Assembly (NCBI GenBank): GCA_008632985.1
Contig: QPGO01000133.1
Location: forward strand, 124,001 to 188,000
Direction: 5' to 3'
Length of the DNA: 64,000 bases
Origin: Psammoneis japonica
Lineage: Eukaryota
A model generated the notes under the pieces. It did no database searches, was not told the DNA's origin, and worked only from the letters and a program-made list of their open reading frames with translations. Shown here piece by piece: positions 4,776 through 64,000 of the stretch; positions within the stretch are counted from its first letter, which is position 1; each line of letters opens with the position of its first letter. The position numbers were made by a program, and so were the translations under genes.

Positions 4776-5663
4776 GCATGCTGACAAAACTGGCACATTG
4801 AAGCAATCTGCTGTCAAGATCGCTCAACAGAAGGGGGTGGGTGCTCAAAAGCCCAGCCCGGCTCTCTTGAAAATGACTGCTCATTTCTAATGAATGAGAC
4901 AATGCCCCCCAAGCAACAGTGGCAGCTCAGCTGGAGGAGATGTTCTCAGCAAGAGTGGCGCCAATGACACAAAGTCGACACCCTGGGAGCGAGCTGTGCA
5001 GCTTTTGTTCCTTTTTTTGTTGTGGGCTGGCTGTCTCTTCCACGGCATCCACGTCTGACTGTGCTCCCTGCCAGCAATTGGAATCAGGTTAGTTGGGCTC
5101 AGGTTGAGGTGGCAGGAATGGACTGAAGCCCAAAACATGTGCAGACAGACCGCCAGTGCAACTCTCCTCATTGCAAGTGGCAACACCCAATTTCCTGGAG
5201 CAAAAGGTGAGAGAAAAAGACTTTGAAAATGTGGGGTGGACACAAATCTTTTGACACACATGGCAAATGTTGCCAAGGGGTGGGAGACTCCAATGAGACA
5301 AAGAAATTTGTTCAGGCAAATAACGACGTCTGCACAGAAGTTGCTGTCCCACAGCACGATGATTCGTCCGGGCTTGTGTTCAACGCTCGTCGTGCGTCCC
5401 GCCGCAAATTCCGTTCGTGCGTTCAACGGTCGAACTTTTTATACCGTCACTTATGTTACATAATTGTGTCGAAATAAACGGATGTCTGTCCAACATACGG
5501 CACCCGTAGACGTACAGTAACGTCGAATTTTGAAATTGTGGCGAATGCTCCTGCGGCGAAGAGCAAAGAGCTGAAGACCCACAGGAAAGGTTCGTTCACG
5601 GCATATCATCAACAACATAACAGCATCGTAACTATCAGCCCATCGCTTGAAGCAGATAGCGAC

Positions 5664-8860: not shown

Positions 8861-8918
8861 ATTGGCAATTGCAATCATCCCTTTTCTGGATCGCAACGAT
8901 TCAATTATAGCATCCATC

Positions 8919-21860: not shown

Positions 21861-22071
21861 ATTTATGCGCTGGTAACAAATTTTAGTAGGATTCTACATA
21901 CTTGCTCCGTTAGTACAATCCCACTGAACACGCGGGTTGAAGTGAAGTTGCTCGCGTTTTCACGTGCTTTTTCTTGTCTGTGCAGGAAAGATCCCGTGCT
22001 GGTCTCATTCTTATGGCCTTGTGTCATGTTGTTGTTGTTGTGGTAATCGCAATAGAGAGCAACGCAACACC

Positions 22072-22755: not shown

Positions 22756-22999
22756 TAGCCGAGTGAATAGGCTCTATAGCACTCGAGATGTGTGGTTGCT
22801 CGTCACTCTGTACACGATTTTTTGACACCACTGATTGTCCATGTTCAGATGTTGTACTGTAGTAAAATTTAGGAGTTGAATCAAAAAACAAGAAAACGTA
22901 CCGTAGCTTCTCGACACGACGATCTGGTCGAAAATTGCCTCCATCAAGCTTTCGAAAATGTTACTGTAAGCAAAAACATGGGTAGAGGAAGATCAGAAT

Positions 23000-25900
23000 G
23001 GACGGTTGGCAAGTTGGCTGGCTGGTCTTATGGAAGGTTCTCTTGGTGACGATGCCTTTTCTGTGCTGAAATCATTGAGAACAACTGAGAGTGCGGCCCT
23101 GTCAGAGCAGCGCAACAAGAAAAGAAATGGACAAAATTTAATGTCATGGAAGGCGGTTTGCCCAGGTGAAAACACTCTCTGATTTTGTTGTGGCACATGG
23201 CACCACTCTGGTGCTTTGTCTCAGTCAGGCAGCAGCAGGGTGGCTTTCTTCTTTGGCCATTGTCGCGCATTTTGTGCATCATTGCATCTAAAACATGGTG
23301 ACAATGCAGAGAGTCCCAAGCCACTTGCTCTTTTTGCAGTTGGCTTGCAGAGTGACCAAAACCCTTTTGGGTGGTGTCTTGAGCTTGCTGCTCTCTTTTC
23401 GGTGCATCTGGGAGAGTGAAGTCATTGTGCCATTTTCTTTGCAGTGCAAGAAATTCTGCACCCAACACCTCAAAAAATTCTCTCCCAGCACCTTCCACAT
23501 GGTGTCCAGCAAGACAGGTTGTGTGCTTGCATGCATGGAGATTTTTGCATGCAATGTGAAGTGCCCGCAGCAAACCACAAATGAAAAAAAGATTTTGAAG
23601 AGACCCAGGGGGGCACAGGTTTGCCGTGGCTTCTTGTGGGGCGCTTTTGTCCAGCCAAGCACTCACAAGGGTTGCTTCACACCCCTTGATGCCTTTCATT
23701 GCACCCAATTCTGCCTGCTCAGGATCTGCTTTCATCACATGTTTGTGGGTCATGCAGGTCTTTGGCATGCAAGGCCAGCTGTGCGCCAGCCTTGCACTGC
23801 CACCCCAAGTGTTGTCAACCATGCATGCTTTGGACATTGCATGCTTGCTTGGCACCTTTGTTTGAGTGAATGAGGGCATGTCTGCTGTTGCTGCATGTGC
23901 AACGTCAATGCTCTTTGACTTGCAGTGATGACTCTGGGAGATTGGCAGCTGCCCCTTTGTCACAGAGTCAACCCAAAGATGGCATTTGGGGCTGGAAATG
24001 TTGTTGCATTTGGGTGGTTGTGTTTTTTGTTGAACACTCCAGTTGAAACACTGTGGCGGGAGAGCAGCACACAGCCAGCAGAGAGCAAGTGCAAGTTTTT
24101 GCACTGGTTTAAAATCATGGTTGGCTGCAAACCACACACTCGTCTGTTGGTGGGTGTGTGCATGTTTGCATCCAGTGCCAGACCCATGGTGCAAACATCC
24201 AGCTGCAAAATGGCTCACCAGCAACCTTTTCATGAGCATCAGCTGCTGGCACCAATTTGCCAAGCAAGCACTGCACATGGGCATGATGTTGCAGGCAGCT
24301 GCTTTCAAAGTGCTTTTTTGATGTGTGCGCACTTCCAAGTTTGGGGGGAGGAAGTGCTCCTCCAGCTCCAACTGGCACAATGTCCACAATTAAAAACAGA
24401 ACAAAATGTGGGCAAGTTTTGACAAGAGCACCAGCCTTGCTGTCTCTGCTGCGCTATGTTGCTGCCATTGTTTTCAAAAATGTTGGAGCTCACAGACAAT
24501 TGCTGGTGGCATCAGCACATCAGTTGGCACTGGATCCATCAGAGGCCCAAATCTGTGAATCCTCCCACCGGCAGACAACCAGACCCCAGTCTGCCCAAAA
24601 ACATGTGTGAGTGCAAGCATGCAAATTTGTTCATGACAAATCAGTCTGATTTGGCACAAATCACACCTGCTCATGACAAACTGCAGGTGTGATTTGCAAA
24701 CAACAAATGTCAAAGTTTGCAAGTCAAGATCTTGTCAACCCATGGTGAAATTTAACATGTGCTTGTGCCCACACAAAATGTTCAGCTGAACAGCAGTTGT
24801 CCAAAGTGCATCTTCTGTGATGGAGCACTGCCATGGAATCTCACATTGAACAATGAAAAATTCCAAATCTTTCAACTGACCAAGTCACTCACTTCTTGTG
24901 ATGTCTCGTTTAACTTGATCACCACCACGGATGTGAATGATGACACAAGTGCAGTTGTCTGGTGGTCTTGCAACTTCTGCACATCATCTGCAAAGAGAGT
25001 CGCCACTGGAGGCAATTCTTCTGCACACTCCCTGTGCTGCACTGTGATTGGTCTGAAGAAGCAGCCTTTTTTTCATTGCCAGCAGATTCTTCAGAAACAC
25101 TGGAAGAGGGGCCTGTGTTTGCTCGTTGTTTTTTGTTTCATGTGTTTGCCTGCGCTTGCTGTGGTGGCACTGCTTTGTGTGTCATTGCCTGCCCCCCCCC
25201 CCCCCCCCTTTTTTTTGTGCCTCTGTGTCATTGGAAATGGCAAAGCTGCTGACGTCAGTTTTGTGCCATGCTCAACATCAATTCCCCAGCAAAACTTGCA
25301 GGGAAATTTGTCTTTGCACAATGTGCTTGTTTGATCTGGGTGTTTTGTGCCAAGCGCAAGTGTGGTGCTGAGAAAAGCTTCTTCTTTGACATGGTCTTTC
25401 ACCTTGATGATGTCTCTGCCAGCCTTTGATCATCGGCCATCTGCTTCCTCAGATTGGTCTGTCTCTGAGCCACAGTCAGCACAACATTTGCTCTTTTTTT
25501 GCATCATGTGTTTGCCTGCACTTGCCATGGTGGTGCTGCTTTGCATGCCGTTGCATGCTGCCCCCCCCCCCCCCCCCCTTTTGTGTTTTCTCTTGACTTG
25601 AAAAAGTGGCATGGACTCAAAATTGCACCCCTGAGTTTCAAAAACATTTCAACTGTTTGTGACTGCATGTGTGAATGATGACACAAATGGAATTGTCTGT
25701 GGTTGTTTCACCTTCTGTGTGTCATCTGCGTGGAGAGTCACCCCACAAGAGGCGGCTCTTTGGCGCTTCCTGTGCTGCACCATGATTGGTCACAAGAAGA
25801 GGCCTCTTCCTCATTGCCAGCAGCTTCTTCAAAATCACTGGAAGGGAGACCTGCTGATGCTTGTTCCCACATGCTGCCATTTTCTTGAGCCAAGTCAAAA

Positions 25901-27850
25901 GAGAGTTGTCATGGCAGTCGGGAGATTTCTCCACACTGCCTGTGGGGGGTGGGTGCACAAATCTCACCCTCTGTCAACAATCTGTCAAAACAAAGAAAGC
26001 AAAAATGGTGGGGTGAAATTCATGCAGAAGTCTTGTGGAGAGGAAAAAAATGGCAACAGAAGCCACTTCACACAATGGACCCAACTGAGTTGTGGGAGCT
26101 CACCCACTGTTGACATTGCTTTGACTTTGCCAAAGCCAGAAAAAGTTGACAGACAGAAAATTTGCACAAAAAAACATCACACAGAGGACAAACAAATTGC
26201 AGTGCAAGTTGCTTCACATGATGAACCAAGAGGATTTGTGGCTGCCTTGCTGCGGGCATTGCCCCAACAAGCAAGCATGTCAACATCCAACGTGAAAGCA
26301 CCAAGTGCAAAAATTTCATTGACACCTTTGACAAACTCCCAAACAGAAATGTCTGTGGCAACAATTGGGTGGTGCAGCTGCACAGATTTGAGAATGAGAA
26401 AACCGTGCAAGACTGGCACCGCTGTTGTTGCACCATGGCTGGCCAAGCTGGCAACTTGGAAACTCAGCAACAAAAACAGTTTGCAGCCAGTTGAGCAAAA
26501 TGAGAAATGGCTTGCACTTGCACGCAAATGGCAAGGTTTCATTGTTGTTGCTTGCACACATGTGTTGGAGGCAGATCAGATTGAAATGCACTGCCCAAAG
26601 CAGAAAAAGACTTGCCGTGCTTCCCATGCATGAAAAGAAACAGCAGCCAGCTTGTCTTTGTGGCCACTTTTCCATGTCTCTGGAAGCAGATCCAAGGCAA
26701 ATTTGGTCATGGGGCAAATGCCAATGAGCAAACATGCACTCCAATCAGAGATGGGCCTGCACAACAAATGTTTGAGAGTGCGCTCACCTGGCCAAAGTGC
26801 CGAATGATGCCCTGCGACTCAGCACACACCCTTTCTTGCCTCTCTGATGTCACCCACTTCTCCAAAGCCAGATTTTTGACAATGCTGCATCCAACACAAT
26901 TGCCTGAAACCTTTTGACTCTGTTGGCCAATTGTGCACCACCCTGACAGTTGCCAAGGCAGCAAAGCTGTTGTTGCGTCTTTCCAACAAAAGGTGTGGGG
27001 ACTTTGAGACATGCTGTGAGCCAGGGTTGGCACCCCTTTGAACAAAACAACAGCTTTGTTCACACAATGCACAAGTGCACCAGTTGGACAGAAGGTGCTG
27101 CCCCACCAAAGGAGAAGGGAAGATCTGAGAGAAAGTGCAGCTGAAGAGATCAATCTTGTGCTCACAAAGCTGCTGCTGCGCAGCACCACATGCGCTTGCC
27201 CAAGTTTTCTGCACAAGAGAAGTGGTGCTCTGTGTCTCCAAATCTGACTCAAAAACAAAACATGGAAAATTCCACCTCAAGTGCCCAGAGTGCAGGAGGT
27301 CAAGGAGGAGCTGCTCTTGCCTGCAGTGTGCGCCACCATGCCAATCTGTCATTTTTCTGGTGCAGCTGCATGTTGCAGCACATCACATCTCATCCTCTTT
27401 TTAAATCAAATGTCTTCACTGTTTGCAGCAATCTGTGCTTGCTGCTTGCCCTGATGCTGATGCTGCCTGGCACTGGGGGGCTGTGGCAGCGCTGCTTCGC
27501 ACAGCTCCTTTGTGTGAGTGTGGGAGCACTCTGTGGCGGCGCAGCTGTGCGCTGCTGAGCTCTCATTTTGCAACAAATGCAGGTGTCAAGTGTGAGACAC
27601 AATGGTGCACACACAAAGAGCTCAAGCAAAGGTCAGTGTGTGGTGCCAAAAGTGCCACCCCCCCTCTCTCAAATGCCGCGTTTTGGCAGCTTGTTTGATT
27701 TTCAAAAAAGGCTGGTGGCACTGCCACAGCTTTTGCATGGAATTTCAGTGTTTTTCTGCAGCATGAAAAAGGATTTTCATTGGACTTTGTGGACACATGT
27801 CAACCATCTGCTGTGTCTGCCAAATGCCACAAAGTCCACAGCTGCCAGCT
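23000..27850. mobile_element. Degenerate TpA/CpG-depleted domain with internal diverged repeats
   Basis: By-eye count for 23221-23820: 1 TA and about 7 CG in 600 bp. Tyr-free spurious ORFs up to 453 aa. Confidence 0.7.
24915..25870. repeat. Two pairs of diverged direct repeats with poly-C tracts
   Basis: About 24930-25130 matches about 25670-25865. About 25138-25225 matches about 25504-25595, each ending in a long C run. Confidence 0.8.
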
Positions 27851-29330
27851 CAGAGAGTGTGCTTTAAGTGAGAACCAGATGTTTGTGGGGTCGGCAGTTG
27901 TGGTGTTGGGGAAATGGGTGGCGGAGGGAGCGTGCGGAGCGCGCTGGGAGAGGGAGAGAAAAAGGGTTGGCCGAGGGTGCGGACGGATGGTCGGGAGGAG
28001 GAGTTGGTGACGGAGGGATGGCGGAGGAGGAAAGCTTGATGTGCAGAGAGATGGTTGGAGAGAGCAAAGCCAAAGTCAAGGCTGAGGGTTTGGGAAGCCC
28101 AAAGCAGGGGTGTGGCAGCATGGCAGGAGGAGCCGAAGTGGGCGGGGGAAAGTTGTTTCCAGGCCGCGTTAGATTGGGTGAGGAGGTTGGAAGGAGCTAA
28201 AAGGGAGTTGGTGAAGGCAGAGAAGGATGCTTGAGAGTTAGAGAAAGAGGATGGATGGGGCCAGGGTGGTTTGGGGGGGAGGGGGGGGGGCAGAGGAGGA
28301 GGTGGTGGTGGAGGCACCAAAAAAGAAAAGATGGAAGTGGCATCCGATGCCTCCCAGGTGATTGAAGGCAAAAGGGAGGAGGAAGAGGCCTGCTTGGTTG
28401 ATGGCGTTGATGATGTCAGAACCGTGGGCGGAGGATGTAGAGCGGCCGAGGAGCTTGTCCCGAGTGCTGCTGAGGTGAGCCTTGCCAAGTGGGTTTTCAG
28501 GGACAGGCAAACCAGGTGCAGGAGGCGGGGGAGCGGGCGGCACGGTGACATCAATTGCCATGAATTGATGGGTGGATGGGGCGTCTGGTGGTGTGAAGCC
28601 GGGGGTGAGTTGGGCGCCAACGTCGGCGGGGGCATTTTAAAGGGTGGTCGGGTGGGAGTCCAACAGGGTCAAGGTAGACTTGTTGGCGGGATCGGCAGAG
28701 GCCGCACAGAGGACCAAGGGTCTCGATGATTGTGTGGGCCGTGTCGCGGATGTGGTTGGATGGGGGGCCTTTGTGCATTTTGGAGCAAGCAAAGGCGTGA
28801 TCGCCGCATGGGTCGGGGCGGGCATGACCACATGGGCAGTTGTGTTGGGAGAGGTTGGGTGGGATGATGGGGAGACGGAGCTTGTGCAAGAGGAGGATCG
28901 TGAAAAGATGGGGCGGAAGGCGATTGGAGGGTGGGGGATGCGGGATGGGGAGTGAAGGCATGGGCTTGTGAGGGGCGACAGCAGGGATGGGAGTGTCGGT
29001 TGGATGGAAGGATCGGCGAGGATTAAGGGGAGGGTGTGGTGTGTGTGATGGTGCAGGTGGAGGCGCTGTGAGAGACTGCGCAGGTTGTGGCATTCGACAG
29101 CGTGCGAAAGGGAGGCAAAAGAGGGGGAGTCGAGCTTGAGAAGGGTGGGAGCGCAGTGGCGGAAGATTTGGCAGAGGGAGAGGGTGGAGCGGGGGTTGGA
29201 CCATGAACCGAGAGTGGAAGAGCGGCTTGAGGGAAGGTGGAAGATGGCGCCACCGGTTAGTGGGATGCCATGTTTGGTGTAGCGGATGGAGCGGAGGAGC
29301 ACATCCAGCTCGATCCCCACAGAACTATTT
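27850..29330 (-). mobile_element. 5'-truncated RLE-type non-LTR retrotransposon relic (CRE/Ambal-like), element 2
   Basis: KLRLPI...CPCGHARPDPCGDHAFACSKMHKGPPSNHIRD (CCHC knuckle), then PADVG, AIDVTVP and LLPFAFNHLGGIG. Homologous to element 1, with several frameshifts. Confidence 0.8.
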
Positions 29331-30755: not shown

Positions 30756-31209
30756 GGCATTTTTTGCTCGAAGCAATTTTTAATACTACTGCATACAGCC
30801 TAACATTTTGGGTATAAACAAGCTACTAAATTACATACACTTTTTTTAATCTACTCCTCTCTACCTTATGTTATCTCGTTGTAAACCTAGAACAATGGCA
30901 TTCGATGCCGTTCGAAAGCAAGCGCAATGGGCGTCAACAGACATCTGTCTGGCGACGGGGATTTATGCCGAAAGCGAATCTTCCCGTATCTCTCGGAGAA
31001 TCATGTCACTATGTAGAATCTTCAATACCCAATAATGGTAATTACCGTTGAATGGTTCTTTCTGCAACCCATGACGTCGACTGCATTAAAACAAAGACAT
31101 TATGCGAACCCAAAGGACATTCTTCGGGTTCGCAATGCCAACTTCGCTGAAGCGTGGTGACACGAACGGTTAAAACACGGAGCGGGTCATCATAATCCTA
31201 TGTATTATT

Positions 31210-32450
31210 GGCGTGTGTCCTTCAAGCTCAAGGGCAAGAAGCGCAGCGAGCCGAACCGAGCCGCAGCCACACGCAAGGTCATCATCCGATTTCAATCTTT
31301 CCAGTCGGTGTCGGTCGCCACATCATGTTCCTGCTCTCTCTCCTCCTCGTTCTCTTCCTCACCAGATGAGCCATCTGTGTGTGGTGTGTGTGTGTGTGTG
31401 TGNNNNNNNNNNNGGGGGGGGGCAATCAGCCTCTTTGGATGCCGCCACATGTCGTCCGAAGTGTGGCGTCCTCTTCGCTGCCATGAAACACCTTGAGTGT
31501 GTTTGCAGCAGCACACGAGGCACCAATCCACACTGTTGCCTTGGCTTGTTGTGAGGACCTTAACAGGCAGTTCAAGAATTGAGAGTCTGCAAACTCGGCT
31601 GGGGGATCTTTTTCCTTTTTGAGCTCTTCTTTTCCATCGGCTGAAAATGCTTGTGACAAAGGTCACCTGTTCCAGCCCCAGGTGATGAGATTTTTGGAGC
31701 AGCTGGGCACATTGAACTCCTTTCAAAGTTGATCATTTCAAAAATCAAAAGGCGAGCATGCACAAAAAAACAAAAGTTTTGTGTGCACTGCCTCGCCCTT
31801 CGATTTGGGAAAAAAACTGACTTGAAGGCTGGCATTTGCTGCTGACACCATGGTTGTGTCATGCCAAACTTTGTTTTGCTGGGATTGTGCAGAGCAAGCT
31901 CTGATTCATGGTGCCTGAATTTGGTGGAATTGGCACACGCAACATTCCACCGTGCCCATTGCAACAGGCACAGAGACAGAAAACACTGCCATCCACAATG
32001 CAAAACTGCAGCTGAAAGGGCTGTTTTTAGAACTCTTTTTGGCTCCATGCACTCCAGCCTGAGCGGGCATTAAAAATCTAAACAGCACATCCAGATTCTG
32101 GTGAGCTCAATCTCCCTTGAAGACAAAATGGTCAAGACCACATGTCGCGCTGTTGTTCCTGCCTTGCATTGGCATGAGTTGCTCTTGCACCAAGCACTTG
32201 GCAGAAGTGGCAGCAAAGTCACCCTCACATTCAAAACAGAGGCCCATCAGCAAACCACTGGCACTCAAAACAAATTGATGCCCAACAGCACCAGAGATGT
32301 TGTCCTTCACATGTCTTGAGATCTTCAAGCCGCAGATTGTGTTCAAACTCGCATCACAGTGCAGGTTGTAATCATTGGCAATTGGGCAGATCTTGTTCCC
32401 GTCCCCACTGTTCATCATTTCATGCAAAAATTCTCTGCATGCTTTGTTGA
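31210..32450. mobile_element. Degenerate TpA-depleted domain containing a (TG)n run and an assembly gap
   Basis: TA nearly absent. (TG)n at about 31384-31402; 11 Ns at 31403-31413. Confidence 0.6.
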
Positions 32451-32680
32451 TGTACTGTACACTGCTTCAGCCTGCCGGATCTTCCTGCTCATGCACGTCG
32501 AGATATCTCGTTGCGTGTTGATTGCCTCGTCTTCACGTCAACAAACTATGGTATCGTACTAAGTTATCATAGAAGATCGTGCGTATGTATAGAATACAAT
32601 TGTCCACATTGTGTACTGAAGTGTGAACTGATATAACTTTAAATATATCAGCATCTACAACAACTAGGCTTCACCTTCGA

Positions 32681-49000: not shown

Positions 49001-49563
49001 GGTGCGGTGCGCGTTGTGTGTGTGTGTGAAAAAGATATGGCATTTTGATAATTCAATGAAGAATATTAAAGATTGAAAATATTTTAATAAAAAAATTTAT
49101 AATAAGATTAGATCTTGAGTGCTTCATATCATTCAAATTTATAAAATTTCATATAAATTCATTTATAATTCACAACGTTTGATTGGTCCATAGCTCAGTA
49201 CAATTTTCACGTCCATTTCTACGATAGCGTCTTTGTTTTTTGTGTGTTTCGCCAAAGACCGGCACAACAAGACGAGAAAAAGACTTGTGTGTGTGCCGTT
49301 GTTTGTGTTTGTTGTTGAATTAAACTACGTTGAGTTATCGCTATTATTGTTGATTTACTTCTTGAAGGAACATAGCATCCATATCAATCAATCAATCAAT
49401 CGAAACAAACAAACAATTTTGACATTGATTCCCGACAACACAAAAAGTACTATATCTCCTCCTCTGCGCTAATACAGTCACGATTTATTCCTCGGAACCA
49501 CGCAAACGCACAAGCGGCGTAAGTGCTGCTTCTGATTCATCTACAGACAATACTACTAAAAGC

Positions 49564-50358
49564 ATGGACGAATTTGATGTCCTTCGTCGACAAGCAACCA
49601 AGCTAGAACGACACTTGGAAGATTGTGTAGCAAGGTATCAACAGGTATGTTGTGTAGAAATTGTACTGAATTGTACGTATCGGTATCAAAACAAAATAAC
49701 TCACACACTGTTTTCCAGTTGGCCCAAGGCGTGCCTACTTCCAATGGCAGCAATTCTAGCAATTCTCTCTTGACTAGTTCCACAAATTCCTCCTCCGCTT
49801 TGCCTTCTCTTGCCGAAGAAACGGCCTTGAGGAATGAAACTTCGCGTGTATTGCGAGAATTACAAGAATTGATTTCACAACAATTGTCACCGGCCGCCGA
49901 AGCGTCGGGCAAACAGCAACACGTTTGCTCGTCAAGCGCTATCGTGAAATTTTATTTGATTTGAGTGGAGATTTTCACAAGGCATCTTCGACACTCCAAC
50001 GAAAACGAGAAATGGCACAAATCATGGAACATGCAGCGCAACAAACCAAAACAATAATATCAGTAGTGGCAATTCCGATATGGATCATTTGTTGCGTGAA
50101 CGAAATCATATTGATAATTCCTTGACAGCCTCGTCGGCGGTTCTATCACAAGCGTCCGATATTCGTTCCGATTTAAAGTCACAAGGGTTGTCTCTCAAGA
50201 ATTCCGTTTCAGGTAAAATGATGCAAATCCAAACCAACATGCCCACGGTCAACAAGTTGATGGAAAGCATTTCCAAAAAACGATCAAGAGATGATTATAT
50301 ACTGGCGGGTGTCATTGCGTCGTGTATCTTATTTACCTTGTGGTACTTGTTTGGATAA
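49564..50358 (+). CDS. GOS1: Golgi Qb-SNARE GOS1/GOSR1
   Basis: LRRQATKLERHLE, (V)KRYREILFD, LLRERNHIDNS and KKRSRDDYILAGVIASCILFTLWYLFG tail anchor. Intron 49645-49718; frameshifts at ~49925 and ~50045. Confidence 0.85.
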
Positions 50359-50429
50359 AAAACTACAAAACTATAATCATGTTAGATGATGTGTGTGCAT
50401 TGATTATTTGTACTTGGAAACAGGATAAA

Positions 50430-52422
50430 AGTGCTACATCTACTAGAGAGTGGTTTTTATCTTGTTTGAGTAGTAGAAGTAGTTCTTGCTCTCTGGGTGC
50501 AAAGCCTGGTACAGTGCATGGTTGTTTGTGTCTTGTGTGTTCAATGACACAACAAGAGAATGACCATCTCGTGTCAGAATTTTACAGGACAATGCAGGCG
50601 CTGGGATCCAGATTGCACCACATGTTTTGGAGAAAAAAGGATTGACACACCTTGTGTGTTGGATTGAATGCAGATGCTGTTGATTGTGTTTCTTTTGCAG
50701 TGTCACCTGCTGCTCTTCCATTGAGCCCAAGCTTCAAGATTCTAAATGATCGTGGTGGGGGGGTGGGTGATGCCAAGAATGTGGGAAACAGTGTGCCTTG
50801 TTGCAAAGCCACTCTCAACACTGCCGAGTTTTCCACAACCCAGCTGAGAGCAGCATCCAGTCAACACATGCCCCTCTGCTCAATCACCAGTGCATGGTTG
50901 CAGCATCACAAAGTGCTTGTTTCACCCCCAAAGAAGGGTTGAAAAAAGAGGTTGCAGTTGGTGTGAGGTGAAAGCCAGGGACTGAGAAACAGCAACTGGG
51001 GTCACAAACAAGATTGTCATGCAAGTGCAAACAGAGTGCAGTGTGAGAGGCATTGCCAGTCAAAGAGTCTTGGAAAGTGTGTGGTGAGGAGAGTGTGGCA
51101 GCAGCACACAATGTGCTTCTTGTCTTCTCAAATCAGCAAAGAGGGAGGCTCTGCTGGATCAGTTGAAAAGGATCTTTGTTTGAAAGCCAGAGCAAGCACT
51201 CAACGTCATTCTCATTGCAAAGATCCCAACTTTGCCACCCAACAGACTTTTGCTTTCAATCAAACCAACCAAGAGTCAATGCAAAGTGGCAGATGTGTGC
51301 AAGTTGACTCAATGATTTCTCAAGTGCTGGCTTCTTGACTTGCAGGGCAGTGCTTGTCTCTGACATTTCTTCTCAGCTCCCTTCAATGTGTCTGCACACA
51401 AAGGCTCACATGCCTTTTCAACATGGTCTTTGCAAGGGTGCCAGAAGCTCCCACTCCAAGGCATTGATCAACTTGGACAACATGCTGCTGACAGTGCAAG
51501 AACACTCGCTTGTTCCATGAGCACCAACATCATCATTGGCATCTCACACCAACAGCTCTCTTGGGTTTCACTTTGCTTCCTCAGTTGCTCAACAATGTCA
51601 GATTTTCCCTGATGGCTGACGTGACATCTTCAATGCTTTCACACTCAAGTTCCTCTTTGCATGTCCCATGGAGTTGCCACCTTGCATTGTTGCCCATGTT
51701 GGTGCCCTCTTTGCAAGACTTTTTGACATCAGCCAGCTGCTCACCCTCAGCCTCTGCGTGCATTTCTGTGCATCCTTTCACGCTAATGTTGCCCTTCTCA
51801 GACAGCATTTCACTGGGTCTCACTGGCCTGTTTTGGCCATCTCTGTCAATGGAGCACCCCAATCACAATGTGTTGCTGGTGCATTGAATTTTTTGCACAG
51901 GCTTTCCAGCACAAATTCTGCATGTTCCTGAAATGTCCTTCAATGACCACACAGTCAAATCTCCAACCTGCTTCTGTCCATGCTGATTCACCCTCTCAAT
52001 GGCCTCTGAAAGTGCCATCTCCATTGCAGAGCTCACAAGCATGAACATGTTGTGTCATCCTTTGACATCATTGTTTGACAGTTGTCCATTTGGTGCTGCA
52101 TGTGCTTTGGCATTTCTGCACAAGATCTGGCATTGTTGTTTCTACACACACAGTGAAACATTTCTTCCAACGAGCGACTTGCTGCACCACCGAGTCTTCC
52201 TGTTTCTCACCTCCCAATCCTGGACAAAACCCTCTCTTGCTTTCTGGTGTGCCAAGCTCCCTGCTCTGTGTTGTGAGCTTTCTGCTGTTGTTGCAGTGCC
52301 TCCAGAGGTGTGAAGTTGAGCCTCTTTTTGACAAGGGCAAGTCTGTGGGTTTCAAAAGCAATGTGTTTCTGCCTGCAAAGCAATGCTTTGCAGATGATGA
52401 TGTGTGTCTGAAAACTTAGAAA

Positions 52423-52453
<31 letters not shown>

Positions 52454-55330
52454 GTTGCCATGCCACCAGCCTGTGGCAAGTCCAGCCACTCTAGAGTCAT
52501 TTCTGGCAGTGAAGCTCTGCCCTCCTGTCACACACTGTGGGGACATGTCCACCTTTTGGATTGGCATGCATCTGTGGAACACAATGTCTGAGTTGGAACA
52601 AGCACGCGACAACACTCGCACAATCATTGTGGAACTGCTCCCAGAAAATGAGGCACACAACATCTTCTCAGATTCGCCTGTGCTGCTCCTGGCTTCACGT
52701 TTGGAGGATTGTCATTTTCTGAATGTGACCACTCTTGCAACAATTGTCCTGCCATTCAAAGACAGAAGTGACAAAAGGGACCTCTGCCAGAGATTCATTT
52801 GATGACATGCGCACATGTTCTCGGATTTGCCTGCGCTCGCAGCTCTCTGCGTTGCATTGAGGACAATCATTTTTCTAGAAAGCATTGCAAACAGATGACT
52901 TGCAAATCCCTGCACCAGCTGGATCTGCACATGCCGTGTTGTCATTTTGCAACATGAAAAAGGCATGTGGCTTGTGTGCAACATGCTGTTGCTCAAGTTA
53001 AAATGAGTGCAAGTCACAAAAAGGCCCGGCAAAAGATGGCGCATCGATTGTGAATCGTTGTCATCTCACATGCTGCATGGAGCACAGAGCACAGTGCTGC
53101 TGCTGCTGCAATGAGCAAAGGGACAAAGGGAGGGCAAGCTGCCCCAAGAGATGCTCACATGCTGCAAATGAACAAGTTTCTCTGATTGTGCAGAGGGGCA
53201 AATAGAAGCACCACAGAAAGAGTCATTCTGTTGCTTTCTTGATGCTTGGCAAATGTGCAGGAGTCATGCAGTGGAACTCTTGTCAAGAGGCCATGCTCCA
53301 AAGTTCCTTGTTCATCATCAACAGGGGGTCCCTCCCTGTCCATGTGACCCTTTGTGTCCCGGACATGGAAGATCGGCACCTCCTGCATGAAGGCCAGGAC
53401 TGCACACACGTCAAAGGTGATCAATGCAAGTCAGCAGTGGCAAAGGAGTCAACTCACCATCAAGTGAACAGCTGAGAGAGCCATTGCCATTTAAAAAGTG
53501 CAGCCCAACTCACACACCACAGTTGCAACATTTCCTGGCCACATGAGGACATTGGATGTTAGATCAGAATTCTCAATGGGTGGCACCAGACAATTGATTG
53601 GCTTGCATTCAGGAAGGACTGCTGGAGAGATTGTGCCATTGGAGGAACAGCTCAAGCATCATGGTGGGCCTGTGCTGCTGCACCCTGGACAGCAATCAAC
53701 AGACATTGAAGAGACTGGCACCATCCAGTTGCCATCACAATGACATGAATTCGCAATGGGCGGCACCTTGCAGAATGGGGCACACAAGGGAGGATTCGAA
53801 GGTTCTGTGATGCCCCCTGATGAGCAGGTGAGGTGCTCCTTGCCCACTGAGCCACACCTGCAATCACATTGAATCATCACAGACTCATTGAAAAACAAGC
53901 AATCCCAAAGGAAATCCAAGTTTGGAGTGCAAACCTGGCACCGCGGATTGCAAAAGGGAAGGACAGATGGAGAGAGTGCGCCATCCACTGAGCAGGTCAA
54001 TTCGGCCAGGCCAGTGATGTTGCTCTCTGTGTGACAAATGACGGTCGCTGCAGCTCCGCCTTCCATGACTTTGTCACCAGATTCACAATTTGACAAAGGA
54101 ATTCACAGCACCTGACAATCTTTGCATTGGGGGGAGGGATGATGGCAACAGTGATTGCTCAATGCATGCTGCCACTTCCCCCACAATGCTTGGATCAGTG
54201 AGCCAACGACCTGCTCCCAGGCAATTCTGCATGCCCCCGTTGTTGGAAGACATTTCTTGAGAGAGATGGCGATGGTCAAAGGGTGATCCATTGCCATTGT
54301 TGCTGCAACGAGGATCCTCTGCAAAGGAAAAGCAAAGGATGGCACTGCCATGGGGAAAACAGACGTGCTGCTCATCCTCTGATGCTCCTTCAGCAGAAAG
54401 AGGAGCCATCAGATTCGTTGTCGTCCCTTCGATGTCTTCAGCGTCATGAGCAAGCAAATTGACACTAACACCGCCCTCCATCAAGTCATGCCACATCTTG
54501 GACACATTGCTCAAGCTTTCACAGCAGCATGGTGAATCGACTCCGTCCTCATTCACGTTGTGATGCAGCTCTGCAACAAACGTCTCTCCTTGACTCCGGG
54601 TCGAAACGACTGTCTTGACTCCATCCACAGTCACCAAGACTCTTTCAGATGTTGTTTTTGTCTCCTTGCTTGAGTCAGTAAAGCAGCACACAAGACCTGG
54701 CACACAAATTCCAAGAATTGCTGCAAGAAGCGTTGAGCAATGAGCACAGTTTGCAGTCACTTGTTGGAAGCCTTGAGTTCGTTCTTGAGCTCAATCAAGC
54801 TGGCAACCTTGGAGTTGCTGAGACAGCCGGTGTTCTGAGAGTCCAAGTGTTGCATCTCCATCTTGGTGTCATCCAAGAAGCCCTTCTGACCTTGATCAAA
54901 ATTCCTGGAGACCTCCGAGAGCTCCCTCTTTTGTTCTGCACGGTGGCAAGACGGGTGTCCTCGATTGGAGCGCTCGCGACTTCTTCCATGGCCCCATTTT
55001 TGTTTTGGGTGGAACTCCCTCCTCTTCATCCTTCTCCTCATTGATGTCTTTGTCATCTTTGCGATCGAACGTGTCAGAGAGATCACTCACAATGGTGGGT
55101 TGGAGCAATGAGAGGGTGCTCGATCAATGATTGTTGATCAAATGAACAGTGCCGTGTGATGATTTTACAAGTGCTGCTTTGATGGCTCGAACAGAATGCT
55201 CCCGAAAAGTACACACATCATTTTCTTGGAGATCCCATGCTGGACTTCAATCTACTTCCATGCCTCTGTTTGGAGGGTTTGAGGTTCACCTCACAAAAAT
55301 GTCAGGTGTCAAGCCACGCGATCTATCCGC
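50430..55330. mobile_element. Degenerate TpA/CpG-depleted domain (repeat relics plus dead host gene)
   Basis: About a dozen TA between 50600 and 55100, mostly CTAA/TTAG/TTAA/CTAG. (TG)n at about 52425-52453. Confidence 0.65.
54083..55086 (-). pseudogene. Decayed host-type gene (EF-hand-like pair plus TM helix)
   Basis: NFDQGQKGFLDDTKMEMQHLDSQNTGCLSNSKV, then an in-frame TGA at ~54757, a frameshift, and TM LLAAILGICVPGLVCCF. No Tyr in about 330 codons. Confidence 0.55.
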
Positions 55331-55511
55331 CACCACGACTGAAACGGGATTGATTGACTCTCTCCGGGACTGACGACGAACGACTGCGACGACATCGCCA
55401 AAATAATATGCCTAATACGACCATCAATGCTCGGAGGAAATCCAAGGCGTTGCTTATGAGATCGTTCGTTTCTCATCTCGATCTACCTGTAGATGCCACT
55501 CAAGAACAAAA

Positions 55512-56435
55512 ATGAACTGTTGCTCAGCACGAAAGTTGTCCAATAGCATTGTGAGGATCTTGATTTTAGCTGCATGCTCCGCTCTGATTGCATGCCAATT
55601 TCTGCTGTTTCATAGCAGAACGGCTGTTGAAACGATTGAAATAAAAGGTTTTGTCTATCCGTCCGTCATCTATGGTCATGTTCACATCGCCAAGACAGCC
55701 GGAACAACTGTTAATGGTGAATTAGCAGCTCATTACGAACGTGTGTGCGGACACAAGGGATATTCGTATGATTTTCACAAAGCCAATGAGCGATTTCGCA
55801 AAACCCGTGTCGCAAAGAATACACAAGATACGATTAACAAGGTATGGCGATCCTATAGCCGAATCCGAGTCCCAATGGAAGCAATGCAGGAAATTGGATT
55901 TGAAGATTGTGATTATGTCAGTTTGGAAACAAACTGGACTGCGTGGCCGGAGCTGTTTCAGAATAATTGGACCGTACCGCTGGAATTGCATGTTCCTTGC
56001 CGGGAACCCATTGATCATTTACTATCCTTTACCAATCACTGGAAGAAAACATTTGAATGCGTGGATAGAGACGAGGAGCTTGTGAATGAAACTTTTGTGC
56101 AACAGCAACTTGATTACTCTGTCCGCTTTATGGATCGATTCTCCATGAACTTATTGGACAACTTTACTGTCAAGTGTTTTGATTTTCGAAACGTTTCAGG
56201 TTACCTGGCCTACATGGACAATAAATTACAGAAAAGACGCATCAAGTCTGACTTTGTGCCTCGCGAAACAAACCACCCACGGGACAAATCAAAGGAATGC
56301 TTGTGGGATCATCCGGAATTGCAAAGCATCGCCAAAGCATATCTCCATGAAAAGTACGACTATTACGATTTTTGTAACCGCTGCATTGGCTCAACCAATG
56401 ATCTCTTGGTCGGCGATGCCTTTGTAGGAGCGTAG
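55512..56435 (+). CDS. Sulfotransferase-like type II membrane protein
   Basis: N-terminal anchor, HVHIAKTAGTT (PAPS-binding-like) and CREPIDHLLS (3'-PB-like). Confidence 0.7.
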   Translation: MNCCSARKLSNSIVRILILAACSALIACQFLLFHSRTAVETIEIKGFVYPSVIYGHVHIAKTAGTTVNGELAAHYERVCGHKGYSYDFHKANERFRKTRVAKNTQDTINKVWRSYSRIRVPMEAMQEIGFEDCDYVSLETNWTAWPELFQNNWTVPLELHVPCREPIDHLLSFTNHWKKTFECVDRDEELVNETFVQQQLDYSVRFMDRFSMNLLDNFTVKCFDFRNVSGYLAYMDNKLQKRRIKSDFVPRETNHPRDKSKECLWDHPELQSIAKAYLHEKYDYYDFCNRCIGSTNDLLVGDAFVGA

Positions 56436-57090
56436 TTTGTACTACCTTGCAACGAGAACCCGTAATGGTGGCTCTTTTGCTACTCTGCCAAACCTGTCGC
56501 AATTATACCAGTAGTGTTGGGTGCATTGTCCAATCTATGCTGTGCACAGCATGTGCAAGTGTCACAGAAACAAGAAGCAGCAAGTTAAAGCCAGCTAATT
56601 GTCGAGCCTCTTTTTGTTTTCGGCATGGATGGATCACCTTCCTTATTGTCGACTCTCTTTTTATTTTCGGTATGGATCGCCATCCGATATGTTTTCTAAC
56701 GCAATTTACTTAGCAGACGATGGAGTACCCGTTTGCTAAAAACTAAAAACCAAATCATACGTAGCGACGATCCTAGAGGGTTTCTTAGATGGTACAAACG
56801 GTAGTGACGATGCTGCGTCGATGAATGAGCATAGATTTCACTTTACTAGAAAGTAAAAGTGAGATACGGACGAACAAGAAGTTGTTATTCTATCCGTGTC
56901 GCGGATCTTTACTGATCTAGGTTACCTCTCGAGCTACTGGTATTGAATAAACTTGTCGCTCCCATATTATACTTCAGACAATGCGCACCCATCATAAAGG
57001 CAATCGAATCACATCAATCCTTTTACGAACAAACTGTCGTTACTTTCCGATACAGACCCAGAACCAACTCTGCGTCAACATATGCCTTCT

Positions 57091-58847: not shown

Positions 58848-60881
58848 TCAGCTTTTGTGGATTTTTTCGTTGAGCTCTTCAATCTTTGATTCGATTTCTT
58901 GTATCTCAAGGTAGATCGGGTCAACGTCCTGGCTGAGCTTCTGGGCTCTCTCCGCCGCTCTCGCTCTTCGCTCCAGTTTGTCCTCCCAGAATTTCAGGTC
59001 CTTTTTGAGATCAGAATTTCCATTGTCTGATGAGATTTCTACATCCTCCTCCTCCTCCAAATAAAGCCGCTGCATTTCTTGGGTTTCCACAGCAGGCTCG
59101 GCGTCACCCGAAGGCTCCCCTCCTTCCAATGCAGGTAACTCGACGGTCGGTCCCTCTATGCTATCGAGATCCACGGTGCTCGAAAAGACAGCAGCTGATG
59201 CTGCAATCACAACAATGGCATTCTTTTCGCTGAGAGCCTGGTCCAGCCTGTAATTGGCAATGGGACCCTTGGCTAGAGAGATACCGTGTTCGACCATTTC
59301 CTGGACCGACAAGTTTCCCACCGTGTTCATGGCCTCCTGTGACACGCCCACATCAGCTGCGACCTTGCGGAGATGCGTCAAGTCACCAAAGTCGGCAATC
59401 TGCGCCAAAGTCAGTTCAACTACACCCTGGAGAGCACTGCCACAGGCTCCAAATGACACAGCATTCAAGACACCCGCGACAAGACTGCAACCAGCCTTGA
59501 CTTTGTTGCGAAAGCGCCAGCTCGATGCAAACTGGTTAAAGGCATTCGCAACCGTCTGGGTGTTGGCTTGTACGTCGTCAATTGCTTCGGCCATGTATCG
59601 CATGTCTTGATGAAGAGCGGCAAGATTATTCTGAAGAATTTCAAATGTAGTAACAACTGCCTGCTGATAAGAATCAAACGCATGTTCCACGCGGTCAATA
59701 CGGGCAGCATTCTGTTGAATAATTGTCTGCATGGCTTGGATATATTCGGTGTTGGCAATATCACATTCGAGGGACGCTACATCAAGTTGATCGTACTGAA
59801 ATCTGGAAATGATATTCTCCGACAAAGCGTACCTCAATCCAACACGATACATGGCGACATGAAAGGGTGACGTACACCAGTCCTTGGCCTTGACAAGAGA
59901 ATTGAAAATCAAGGTTTTGCGGTCACTTGCCGTAATGGTACCAAGGCGATATTGTGCGTTGACGGCTGTACAGTAATATTTGAGTTGAAGAAAGTCCGTC
60001 ATGTCGCTACAAGCGTTCTCAAATATGGGTGCAATGGTTATTGCGTCACCGTCCTTGCTTCTTTGTACGAGCGCTGTCATTTCATCAAAATGTTTATAGA
60101 AGCTTGCTTCGGTCGTTTTTTTTTATAGAATGCCAAAACTTTTGTGAGTTACACAACAGCAACAATGACAACGACGACGACAACAACCAATTAGAAACTC
60201 ACGTTGAGTATTTTGGTTTGCCAATGCCTGTATCTCGTCTCCGCCTTGATCTGCTTGACGATACAATCGATCCGCTTCCACCTCGTTCTTTTCCACACCT
60301 CGTCCATTTCTATAGCACCAACCAAGATTTTTCATTGCATTAGTGTCGCCTTGATTTGCAGCTTGACGATACAACCGAACTGCTTCCGCCTCATTCTTCT
60401 CCACACCTTGTCCATTTTTGTAGCAAACACCAAGATTAACCATTGCAGTAGTGTTGCCTTGATTTGCAGCTTGACGAAACAACCGAACCGCTTCCACGTC
60501 GTTCTTCTCCACGCCTCGTCCATTTTCGTAGCAAACACCAAGATTAACCATTGCATAAGTGTTGCCTTGATTTGCAGCTTGACGATACAACCGAACCGCT
60601 TCCACGTCGTTCTTCTCCACGCCTCGTCCATTTTCGTAGCAAACACCAAGATTAACCATTGCATCAGTGTTGCCTTGATTTGCAGCTTGACGATACAACC
60701 GAACCGCTTCCACTTCGTTCTTCTCCACACCTTGTCCATTTTTGTAGCAAACACCAAGATTGACCATTGCATCAGTGTTGCCTTGATTTGCAGCTTGACG
60801 ATAGCATTCAACAGCTTTTTTGAAATTCTTCCGTTCGTAGTAGTCAACACCACGATTAAACAACTCCACCGCAGTAGGCAT
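58848..60881 (-). CDS. Sel1-like repeat protein fused to a helical/coiled-coil C-terminal region
   Basis: Five full 36-aa SLRs (AMVNLGVCY.NG.GVEKN..EAVRLYRQAANQG) plus a partial one. A predicted intron at 60107-60202 (gtgagt...aag) joins them in frame to ORF 58848..60080. Confidence 0.8.
60245..60805 (-). repeat. 108-bp near-identical coding tandem repeats (Sel1)
   Basis: gccttgatttgcagcttgacga recurs every 108 bp, five times. Confidence 0.9.
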
Positions 60882-61579
60882 GGTTTCAAAAGCAACTGAA
60901 TGTCTCGCTTCGTATTATGCAACTCTTGTCTTCCCAAATGGCGTTGAGTCGATCCTGTTGTGTTTTTGCTTTTGGGAAACTGTACCTGTCCAACGCCTTG
61001 GTGTCTTGAAACCTGCGAAACGTGCGTGTTGTATAGAATGTACACTCTACTCGAAGCTTCAATCAAGTCTGCCAGCCGAGCGAGTCTCGAACAATTGCGT
61101 GAATGCGCAAATGATTCTTTATTCCTTTGAAAAGAGAGAAAATAGAACGATAAAGTGATAAGGCCTGTGCACAAAGCACAATAGCAAGAGTTTTTTAGTC
61201 GAGTGTCCTGAGGATCGCACTGTGCAGTACGCGTGACTCGATCGAGCGTCGACAAAAACACAGTCGATGCACGCTGCGACTTCGCAATGATCGAATGTGC
61301 GATAATACGATAACGAATCATCTCACCTATGGTACTCCGCAACTCTTAAAGGACTCCCGAGTAAATCCGGATGATGTGGTGAAATCACTTGTGACAACAA
61401 CAGCAATGGAATAAACTCTTGGGCAACAATCCACGTGAGATTTCGGCATGTCCCATGCAAACGTGATCCAAAATCCGGATGATTTCTTTGGTACATTGTT
61501 GTACGTAAATTTGTCGTAGACGTCTGTCCTCGTTCGAGGTACGAGCTTGGATCCACGACATTTCGATTTTTTTAGATTT

Positions 61580-64000
61580 TGAGTCACGAATGCCAATTCT
61601 CAGCACAAACCACTCGCACAACGCGACCCAGCATGATGTGTCATCGCTCTCGAGCATGTTGTGGCATGGACCTGTGCCTCCTCTGCCTCTTAGACAGCAC
61701 TGAATTCATCCTTGTTTTCATCTTTGATGTGGGTGTCCGCGGCATTGTTGCGGGGCAGGCAATGCATGCAGCACAGGCTTTTTGCCCCAACTTGATTCTT
61801 TCACAATGTTTGCCTGACTTGACACCTGACTCTTGTGACGGGAATCTAAAACAAGGTGTGCAGGGCCCCACAGTGCTCTCTGTTAGAGCAGAGAGTGACA
61901 TTTTTGGTTTGAAAGCAGAAACAGTGCCAAGTTTTGTGCGGGCTTGTGATGGAAAGAGACTGCTGCGGGAGCACGCGCTGTGTTGCAAATTTTTCATCTT
62001 TCCACCCATTGGATGTTCAAAGGCTGCAAGTGAGTGCAGCCACAGAGTGGAGACTGCCAGACAGCACCCTGCATTTTGCTTTTGGTGCAGCAGCCATGCC
62101 CTTTTAAAAGCCATTTTGGCTCAAGAGTCGGCGGGTTTCCAGATCTTCAGTTCTCAACAAGCAACCCACCCACACTGCTGTGAGAAAGCTGAGGCAATTT
62201 CATGCCAGCAGACACTGCACACAACTCCGGCACTTTGGCAGTGCAAAACCCTGTCAAAACTCATCTGCCAAGCTGGCAGTCATTTTTTGCTGGCAGGCAC
62301 AGAAATGTTTTGTGCCCAAGAAAGAGTTCATTGGGGATGGATGGCGTGCAACACCCCCCTGTGAAGCTGCTGGCACAAAATCTGCACAATTGCACAGGAA
62401 CCCTCAGAGTGCTTCTGTGCAAATTGGAGCTCACACAAATGACAAGCAGGGGTGTGGGTCAGGTGCGCTGGTGCAGGCAAACAAAGTGGTGGCAGGACCC
62501 ATTCTCTGCACTGCCTGCCCAGCCCAGTGAGTTTTCAAACATCACTCCTTCTTCTCACCTGACCCATTGCAAGAGATGATCAGCTGCAAAGGCTTGCCAC
62601 TCTTTGCCATTTTCTCAACATCTTTGTGTCACTCACATGTGGGAAAAGCCATGGCCATCTTGGTTGGCTCTCATCCCCAGCTCTCAAAAAATCATTGGGG
62701 CAGCAGCAGTCATTGATGCCCTGCGGCACAAAAGGCACCCAGCTTCAGTGCTGCTGGCTTGGCTGGGGAAATCAACAAACAACTCCAGCCAAGCCTCCTC
62801 CATGTCAGAGCCAAAACAAGTTGCAAAAAAGAGGCGGGTTTGTTGGCTGACAACATGCACTGGAGCAGGGTCTCAAAAAAATGTTGGCCTTGCTTGCAGC
62901 ACTTGTTCTTCAAACACTCAGCACAGGCTCCCTGCCAAACCACATGCTTTTGATGTGTGACAAGGTTCACACACGGGGCAATGGGGCCAAGCATCATTCA
63001 ATTTTGTTCATTGTCAATGTGAAAAAGAGTGTTTTGTTGTGACCTTTGCTTTTGATGCAGTGCTTGCAGACTCTGTGCCATCCATCCAACACCTGTTTTT
63101 GCTGGGAATTTCAAGCACCTGTTGATTGTCTGTGTGTGGTGCAAAATGATTTCAGCCATGTGCAGCTCAATGCCAGCATGTCACCTCTCTCAGAAAAGTT
63201 GAGCCATGGCACAAAGGGGGTTCAAGAAAATGGTCACATCATGGTGCTGAAACTCCACAGAAACACCACAGACCCACACATCTTTGGGTTCCTCAAGACC
63301 TGAGGGTTTCAAGTCTGTCATTTGTGGCTGCCTTTGTCTTTGCCCCCTGTCTTGAGTCAAGGGGTGGCATGAGTGCCACATGGTCAGTGCATGCTTTGGC
63401 TAAATCAAGCAGGGTGTTTCTGCACATTTTGCTTTTTTTGACTCAATCTCTTGTGGAAACTCCTTCTCAGTGATTGCCACTGCAGCAACCCATGCCCCCC
63501 CCCCCCCGAACTCAATGCAGCAGCAGCACGGACCACCTGCTTCTCTTGGCACATTCTTCCACACTGTGCTCACATGGCAGCACTGCTTGCTCTGAAAGGC
63601 ATTTTCCACACATCTTTGCATGTGCAGTGTGGCACCACCCTGTTCAAAAACACGTGCGCCGCACTTTGCCAGGGCCAACCTGGGTTCCACCTGTTGCACA
63701 CTTCGAAAGTTGCCAGGGCCAACACGTGGCTGGGAGGATCCACTTGTTGCTGCTCCGGGTCACATTTCTCATCATTCACCTCAATCCCTGGTCAATCGCC
63801 AATGTCAACAACCATCAATCGATGGACAAACAATGGTCAGTGTCAAGACATTTTGCAACTGACCAAGTTTTTGACATTTTGGGTGAAAATTGAGACTTTT
63901 GCTGTGGAGATCATGTGAGCCTGCGCAGACATAGAATCAGCAAGGGTGGCAGCAAGAGGTGGAGGTGAAACAGGAGCTTGTCAACCTCTTCAGAGAGGGA
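61580..64000. mobile_element. Degenerate TpA/CpG-depleted domain (runs off the window)
   Basis: Only about 6 TA seen in 2.4 kb (TTAG x2, CTAA x2, TTAA, ATAG). Tyr-free spurious ORFs. Confidence 0.65.

Follow-up and report, generated by a model that had tools for sequence, protein, structure and literature searches.

A coupled loss of TpA and CpG in non-genic domains of a diatom genome may reflect targeted DNA editing

The window analysed here is a 64-kb stretch of Psammoneis japonica DNA (contig QPGO01000133.1, positions 124,001 to 188,000); positions below are counted from its first nucleotide. It contains six blocks, 0.9 to 6 kb long and interleaved with genes, in which the dinucleotide TpA is nearly gone. 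CpG is depleted in the same blocks, TpG and CpA are in excess, and the few TpA sites that survive follow a steep context gradient. We propose, with a probability of about two in three, that two directed transition processes, both ending in TpG/CpA, drove these non-genic domains of a diatom nuclear genome near saturation. These domains represent a process described in one recent preprint, here in a diatom and carried to saturation; they add to it a 3′-pyrimidine rule and a coupling with CpG loss. That preprint, from 2026 and on one rhizarian alga, was all that a literature search gave for experimental TpA-directed hypermutation in eukaryotes; the search found no report of TpA erasure in diatoms.

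TpA-poor and CpG-poor domains coincide

The domains were set by two separate two-state hidden Markov model (HMM) segmentations, one on TpA and one on CpG, which agree on 6/6 domains (Table 1). Most edges lie 5–190 bp apart; in two domains, the TpA-poor state runs further right than the CpG-poor state, by 0.75 kb and 1.4 kb. Many 500-bp windows within the blocks have 0 TpA compared to ~30 expected, and a CpG rho (an observed/expected dinucleotide measure) of 0.0–0.5. In domain 5, which the sequence-only reading of this DNA had singled out, the rightmost 750 bp retain intermediate CpG: in 250-bp bins, CpG rho is 0.00–0.61 up to ~54350 and 0.35–0.69 beyond. Counts below refer to the six trimmed domains (18,166 bp) or to a stricter core (16,587 bp), and ‘outside’ denotes the flanking, mostly coding DNA of the window.

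Pooled over the domains, TA rho is 0.04 compared to 0.58 outside, CG rho is 0.22 compared to 1.01, and CA/TG rho is 1.76 compared to 1.16. G+C is barely changed (0.485 inside, 0.44–0.48 outside), AT rho drops from 0.92 to 0.75, and GC rho climbs from 1.03 to 1.34. Defining 500-bp windows as extreme when TA rho is below 0.15 and TG+CA rho above 1.5, we found 64 of 255 here and 0 of 1546 in a comparison set of 405 kb (50 formin-linked, diatom-like metagenome loci). The absence of such windows from related loci reveals that the signature is not a general property of diatom DNA; as the comparison contigs are gene-rich and repeat-poor (repeats assemble poorly), this is no proof that other diatoms are without the process.

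Other compositional features accompany the domains. GA/TC rho is 0.90 inside compared to 1.11–1.15 outside, and AA/TT rises to 1.29 inside; these shifts may reflect an extra TC>TT component, inseparable from differences in ancestral composition. CCC/GGG inside the domains is 1.9-fold over simulation, and a (TG)n microsatellite (52427–52455) and long C-runs (~25190–25210) lie within them. A seventh TpA-poor stretch (21237–21863) is G-rich with normal CpG and was counted apart from the six. Together with the right part of domain 3, it has a GC content of 0.56–0.62, a GC skew of +0.36 to +0.53, near-normal CpG, a modest TG/CA excess and proline-rich open reading frames (ORFs) on the minus strand. 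These G-rich stretches look compositionally distinct from the erased domains, although the latter one adjoins domain 3.

Table 1 Erased domains and features within them (window coordinates)
Feature	Position (domains: TpA-poor HMM segment)	Strand	CpG-poor HMM segment	Remarks
Domain 1	1538–5439		1518–5323	Sits between two sulfotransferase ORFs
Domain 2	7267–8794		7272–8631	
Domain 3	23030–29257		22954–27891 only	
Domain 3, right part	27891–29257			G-rich, near-normal CpG
Domain 4	31207–32452		31477–32475	Contains assembly gap (11 N at 31403–31413)
Domain 5 (singled out by the sequence-only reading)	50511–55165		50322–54415	
Domain 6	61574–64000		From 61752	Continues past window end
Old internal duplication, domain 3	24932–25115 and 25670–25853			
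Old internal duplication, domain 3	25129–25213 and 25495–25582			
Longest in-domain ORF (453 aa)	23028–24389	−		
Two in-domain ORFs, different frames	54083–54760 and 54757–55086	−		TpA-free zone, intermediate CpG

Surviving TpA sites follow a graded context rule

Positions 50600–55100 hold 12 TpA sites (50743, 51784, 52143, 52417, 52492, 52876, 52999, 53203, 53492, 53560, 54466 and 54679), compared to 186 expected at outside density. Nine of the 12 lie in the context YTAR (binomial P = 8.5e-6 against an outside share of 15.8%); the others are CTAC at 52143, ATAG at 53203 and GTAA at 54679. The six trimmed domains retain 51 TpA: 37 in YTAR (TTAA 15, CTAA/TTAG 20, CTAG 2), 14 in RTAR/YTAY and 0 in RTAY. 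The core retains 45 TpA compared to 687 expected, and its YTAR share (31/45) differs from the 15.8% outside with P = 2.5e-15. Outside DNA without long ORFs has a YTAR share of 19.5% (121/622). The domains’ own flank composition predicts just 34.9% (P = 3.5e-6), so the composition of T/A runs fails to explain the bias.

The sequence-only reading had proposed that TAY/RTA is erased and YTAR is spared. The residual TTAA, CTAA, TTAG and CTAG sites that it listed are present, apart from a one-base offset (52417/52418) and one site (~29024) that falls outside the trimmed domains. TAT, TAC, ATA and GTA are rare, as it stated: counted on both strands, the 16.6-kb core has 4 ATA/TAT and 10 GTA/TAC, and the loss of both Tyr codons follows directly. 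It had also predicted how the NTAN classes would rank. The inside/outside frequency ratio is indeed lowest for RTAY (0.000), of which no site is found among the 51 survivors, and RTAR/YTAY is strongly depleted (0.035). YTAR, expected near background, is at 0.318 and thus still ~3-fold depleted, with ratios of 0.47 for TTAA, 0.375 for CTAA/TTAG and 0.064 for CTAG (~16-fold).

To describe the rule, we fitted a Poisson model in which the A on each strand survives according to its 3′ neighbor. Per-strand survival is 0.70 for TAA, 0.38 for TAG, 0.09 for TAC and 0.035 for TAT. The likelihood ratio over uniform depletion across the NTAN classes, one of two outcomes that would have spoken against a context rule, is 83.6 (P = 5e-18); the other, an effect of T/A composition alone, is contradicted by the flank comparison above. 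The four-parameter fit also improves on a plain purine/pyrimidine split (likelihood ratio 9.5, P = 0.009). Given this fit, and given that YTAR and CTAG are themselves depleted, the context rule is a steep gradient, with no absolute sparing. Among the TTAA survivors, the next base is A in 10 of 15 cases, which may hint at a +2 effect.

CpG is lost under a rule of its own

The proposal of a TAY-directed mutagen was incomplete, as these domains have also lost CpG, with a different context dependence. Positions 50600–55100 hold 68 CpG compared to 247 expected, and the core holds 178 compared to 909, a loss of ~80%. Survival depends on the 5′ base (G 0.89, C 0.43, A 0.34, T 0.28), so that depletion is greatest at TCG and ACG and GCG is protected. 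GCGC is undepleted in the core (35 observed, 30.5 expected at outside density) and, in the trimmed domains, accounts for 38 of 248 CpG survivors, compared to 3.3% outside. A single multiplicative model of 5′-neighbor effects fits roughly (ACGT 14 observed, 6.1 fitted; GCGC 35 observed, 24.3 fitted). CpG decay is slower in G+C-rich flanks, and the pattern fits such slower deamination. It fits equally well a deaminase with a 5′-T preference, comparable to the TCG rule of amphioxus ADAT2.

Both strands change, most likely by A>G at T-A-Y

The TG/CA counts in the six cores are 402/394, 158/129, 587/530, 88/97, 437/436 (domain 5, counted over 50561–54365) and 232/265, with no significant skew. As TG and CA are gained equally, both DNA strands are targeted, and this argues against editing of a single RNA strand. 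The survivors alone separate neither the A in T-A-Y from the A in R-T-A, nor A from the T on the opposite strand. Products do distinguish the first pair: YTAY would become YTGY under T-A*-Y (asterisk, altered base), and YCAY, which is RTGR on the other strand, under R-T-A*. Inside/outside gains are 1.94-fold for RTGY, 1.75-fold for YTGY, 1.38-fold for YTGR and 1.25-fold for RTGR. Subtracting the gain of RTGR from that of YTGY leaves 1.09 times the lost YTAY (bootstrap confidence interval 0.79–1.39), where strict T-A*-Y predicts 1, a random strand 0 and R-T-A* −1. In a forward simulation on outside DNA, the root-mean-square deviation from the collateral dinucleotide shifts was smallest for T-A*-Y (0.091), followed by a random strand (0.114) and R-T-A* (0.141); T-A*-Y also came closest to the observed decrease of AT and increase of GC. 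Product asymmetry and simulation thus favor A>G at 5′-T-A-Y-3′. The earlier proposal that the mutagen recognizes TAY (=RTA) stands as a strong preference, seen in the survival fit, the products and the simulation, but not as an exclusive specificity: it is graded, and TAR is attacked too.

Further evidence for change in place comes from repeats. In three aligned repeat pairs, CA and TG are exchanged in register in 6 of 16 adjacent double differences, with 72 doublet types possible. All six doublets lie in the two old duplications of domain 3, four of them in the R..Y frame. Such doublets are expected where a single ancestral TA or CG has resolved independently, to TG or to CA, in each copy.

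Content and origin of the domains

A six-frame read-through of the six domains (stops as X) gave no match in Pfam, and neither a reverse transcriptase nor an integrase appeared in these scans; the top noise was sub-threshold (CDV3, E = 0.037; Phage_lysozyme2, E = 0.0067). The 453-aa ORF in domain 3 has no Pfam match, no word-indexed match and 0 HMMER matches among 1.84 billion representatives. It may be a relic coding region: a TpA change never makes a stop codon, so an old frame can remain open. For the 225-aa ORF at the right end of domain 5, exhaustive HMMER found no relatives. Across 54083–55086 on the minus strand, the read-through frame is interrupted by TGA alone. Because TpA change itself cannot create stops, these interruptions would fit CGA>TGA by CpG mutation.

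The domains do not appear to be copies of one element, as blastn of the six against each other found short internal repeats only. A search around 49500–56500 gave no terminal repeats, direct or inverted, of 25 bp or longer, and a tandem-repeat search gave nothing relevant inside the domains. Of the public sequencing runs, one DNA run and no RNA run was listed as containing this stretch; part of domain 5 (51500–52500) is multi-copy in that run, with a summed contig depth of 116–190 compared to ~56–65 nearby. At position 51785, where a CTAA survivor of the window has its A, ten contigs carry G instead; this TA either escaped as an ancestral site or arose through a new G>A change in a tolerated context. 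Among the matches listed for contigs of this run aligned at ≥80% likeness, transitions are balanced (A>G 34, T>C 38, C>T 31, G>A 35). The domains sit between genes, and a mobile or foreign origin is plausible.

Neighboring genes and other features of the window

The window is intron-poor eukaryotic DNA with ~47% G+C. Its ordinary genes include a 1358-aa formin, three sulfotransferases and a glycosyltransferase. Every named relative of the formin is a diatom protein (Fistulifera, Cyclotella, Seminavis, Thalassiosira, Nitzschia and others; top identity 57–59%), and an orphan neighbor ORF clusters with sequences in which Bacillariophyta is the commonest phylum. Both point to diatoms, and on these protein relationships we take the host to be a diatom.

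The sulfotransferase ORFs (35–1408 and 6131–7054, both Sulfotransfer_2; 8616–9791, Sulfotransfer_4) share a strand, with domains 1 and 2 in between; the third has its first 180 bp inside the TpA-poor segment. A tandem repeat at 60253–60803 (108 bp × 5.1 copies, 92% matches) lies within overlapping long ORFs, outside the erased domains, and coincides with a raised contig depth of 153 in the public sequencing run. Rfam gave 0 matches across the window.

Proposed mechanism

The domain DNA is probably silenced mobile or foreign DNA, part of which is repeated elsewhere in the genome. Two processes would have acted on it. The first would change A:T to G:C at TpA on both strands, with a strong preference for the A in 5′-T-A-Y-3′ (TAT ≥ TAC >> TAG > TAA), such that RTAY is wholly and RTAR/YTAY almost wholly lost, while TTAA and CTAA/TTAG last longest. 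It would be self-limiting, because each event removes its own target: TG/CA is no longer TA. The most likely chemistry is enzymatic deamination of adenine in DNA to inosine, read as G. A candidate enzyme is a deaminase whose pocket, like that of TadA/ADAT, would accept U/T-A-C/T and which would be guided to marked chromatin, as has been suggested for Bigelowiella natans. The second process would change C:G to T:A at CpG, most strongly at TCG and ACG and not at GCGC; in its simplest form, it would be deamination of 5-methylcytosine in the same, presumably methylated, domains.

Several points weigh against this proposal. Its base is narrow, namely one 64-kb window with 45–51 surviving TpA. CTAG is depleted beyond the multiplicative model (2 observed, 4.5 fitted, ~30 at outside density). 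We infer the direction of change from composition and doublets, in place of an ancestral or unmutated copy, and the flanking, mostly coding DNA served as a stand-in for ancestral composition. Residuals persist in the T-A*-Y simulation (observed and simulated rho: AT 0.75 and 0.86, GC 1.34 and 1.16, GA 0.90 and 1.04), and since it undershoots these shifts, either the ancestral DNA was composed differently or minor processes also contributed. The density of lost YCGY is about that of lost YTAY, so the 5′-neighbor bias of CpG loss could partly yield the product asymmetry; the lower AT and higher GC are free of this caveat, as they run opposite to CpG decay and in the direction that TAT>TGT and TAC>TGC predict. 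Pfam and HMMER searches found no transposon, viral or other protein homology in any domain. Finally, the amphioxus deaminase BjADAT2 prefers GAA, not TAY, as the context for A in DNA (PMC10354150).

Alternative explanations

The altered base may instead be thymine: the T in 5′-R-T-A-3′ would be modified or oxidized by a TET/JBP-type enzyme (for example to 5-hydroxymethyl- or 5-formyl-uracil) and read as C. R-T*-A on one strand and T-A*-Y on the other denote a single base pair, and the survivor, product and simulation counts fit this alternative equally well. Thymine hypermodification prefers TpA in some protists. We nevertheless consider this explanation improbable; the authors of the B. natans precedent interpreted it as adenine deamination, although also without enzymology.

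TpA might also have been erased regardless of context, with the YTAR bias arising from young back-mutations or flank composition. Ten paralogous contigs have G at 51785, so a new G>A change could account for at least one survivor. However, new TA sites drawn from the in-domain TG/CA pool would be ~23% YTAR, and flank composition yields 34.9%, whereas 69–73% is observed. RTGR shows the smallest gain among the TG classes, which the random-strand model does not predict. Context-free erasure is thus very unlikely.

We give similarly little credence to RNA hyperediting, in which ADAR-like A>I changes on retroelement transcripts or double-stranded RNA, the substrate of ADAR as opposed to the DNA considered here, would be fixed by reverse transcription and integration. 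ADAR favors a 5′ U (Discussion of bioRxiv 10.64898/2026.01.13.699255), and part of one domain is multi-copy. Hyperediting fixed by retrotransposition was rejected because TG and CA are gained without skew in every domain, both strands being changed, and because the six-frame Pfam scans contain no reverse transcriptase or integrase; moreover, CpG loss has the same boundaries. ADAR prefers G as the 3′ neighbor, unlike the pyrimidine preference found here.

A non-mutational origin, by selection against TA and CG words or by import of DNA from a source with this signature, would be in line with the sharp domain edges and the lack of relatives. It is hard to reconcile with the lack of any detected coding function in the domains, with one signature shared by six domains that have no blastn match to each other, and with the CA/TG doublets between old repeats, which indicate change in place. 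We know of no genome with a TA rho of 0.04, and judge this origin to be scarcely credible. Least probable is an artefact of assembly or sequencing chemistry: while a single sequencing run, possibly the assembly’s own source, contains the stretch, contigs of that run reproduce the domain plus normal flanks, one of 3,941 bases spans 52463–56368 across the right-hand boundary with 0 differences, and ordinary genes are interspersed with the blocks on a single scaffold.

Comparison with known systems

The closest precedent for the two directed processes that we propose is B. natans. In mutation-accumulation lines of this alga, 231 of 302 single-nucleotide mutations fell in two integrated viral regions; 230 of these 231 were A>G or T>C, every one of them on TpA according to the authors (Mettrop et al. 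2026, bioRxiv 10.64898/2026.01.13.699255). In the nucleocytoplasmic large DNA virus (NCLDV) region, the figure is 210 of 211, and the B. natans genome contains 124 TpA-poor, CpA+TpG-rich clusters, mostly unannotated; an ADAT2-like deaminase was proposed as the enzyme (same preprint).

The integrated NCLDV and virophage DNA of B. natans and the diatom domains share TpA>TpG/CpA changes on both strands over kilobase-scale regions, and the clusters share the long-term footprint, poor in TpA and rich in CpA+TpG. B. natans clusters comprise, by definition, three or more 1-kb windows with a Rho TpA of 0.43 or less and a Rho CpA+TpG of 1.52 or more. The diatom domains lie within these limits: TA rho is 0.00–0.09 in 500-bp windows across 50501–55000, and TG+CA rho in 250-bp bins of domain 5 is mostly 1.5–2.2, with one edge bin at 1.26. 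A>G together with T>C on both strands is indicated indirectly here, by the equal gain of TG and CA and by the CA/TG doublets. The two systems differ in host, a diatom (Stramenopila) compared to a chlorarachniophyte (Rhizaria), and in extent, with TpA depletion near total here (rho 0.04) compared to 0.45 in the B. natans NCLDV region. CpG is co-depleted in the diatom domains, whereas mutations in B. natans are almost all A>G/T>C and the main text of the preprint does not contain ‘CpG’, ‘trinucleotide’, ‘context’ or ‘flank’ (bioRxiv 10.64898/2026.01.13.699255). The B. natans targets are viral; the diatom domains may be of viral or other foreign origin, and gave no viral match in the Pfam and HMMER searches.

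Fungal repeat-induced point mutation (RIP) resembles the diatom process in being a domain-confined transition hypermutation that destroys repeated or non-genic DNA. Its changes are C>T, chiefly at CpA, and they create TpA. The diatom domains instead lose TpA, with A:T>G:C as the main change; a TpA rho of 0.04 with a CpA rho of 1.76 is the opposite of RIP, which we therefore rejected as the process. Methylation-driven CpG decay likewise turns CpG into TpG/CpA in silenced DNA, and both the CpG deficit and the TpG/CpA excess are found here, but such decay leaves TpA untouched.

Among characterized deaminases, TadA edits within UACG (Escherichia coli, Klebsiella pneumoniae) or UAMG (Streptococcus pyogenes) (PMC11472039). 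In its natural sites as given there, the edited A thus follows U/T and precedes C, as proposed here; the order in the diatom domains differs (TAT ≥ TAC), and no +2 G is needed. BjADAT2 deaminates both A and C in DNA and favors TCG for C (PMC10354150), which matches the most depleted CpG context here.

Implications

The combined TpA and CpG signature points to a possible targeted DNA-editing defense, and we infer enzyme, targeting signal, defensive role and domain origin from this signature and the precedents above, whereas composition, context rule, strand symmetry, shared domain boundaries and doublet footprints are observed in the sequence itself. Many diatoms carry DNMT4, which is related to the RIP factor RID and whose function is given as unknown (PMC9998398). 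It is possible, and proposed here only tentatively, that diatoms have a RIP-like defense, in which a DNA adenine deaminase of 5′-T-A-Y-3′ specificity acts alongside C>T change at CpG via 5-methylcytosine or the RID-related DNMT4. If so, both self-complementary pyrimidine-purine steps would be removed from marked DNA, and the motif of the enzyme would be readable straight from genomes. Together with B. natans, this would make silencing of invading DNA by adenine deamination old and widespread in the SAR (stramenopiles, alveolates and Rhizaria) supergroup.

Diatoms are ecologically dominant and unrelated to B. natans. The 3′-pyrimidine rule narrows the candidate enzymes, and the tight coupling with CpG loss suggests a link with chromatin that is methylated or silenced. 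Should the pattern prove general, such domains would offer an easy way to recognize past invasions in a genome, and the enzyme responsible would be a natural, context-specific DNA adenine editor.

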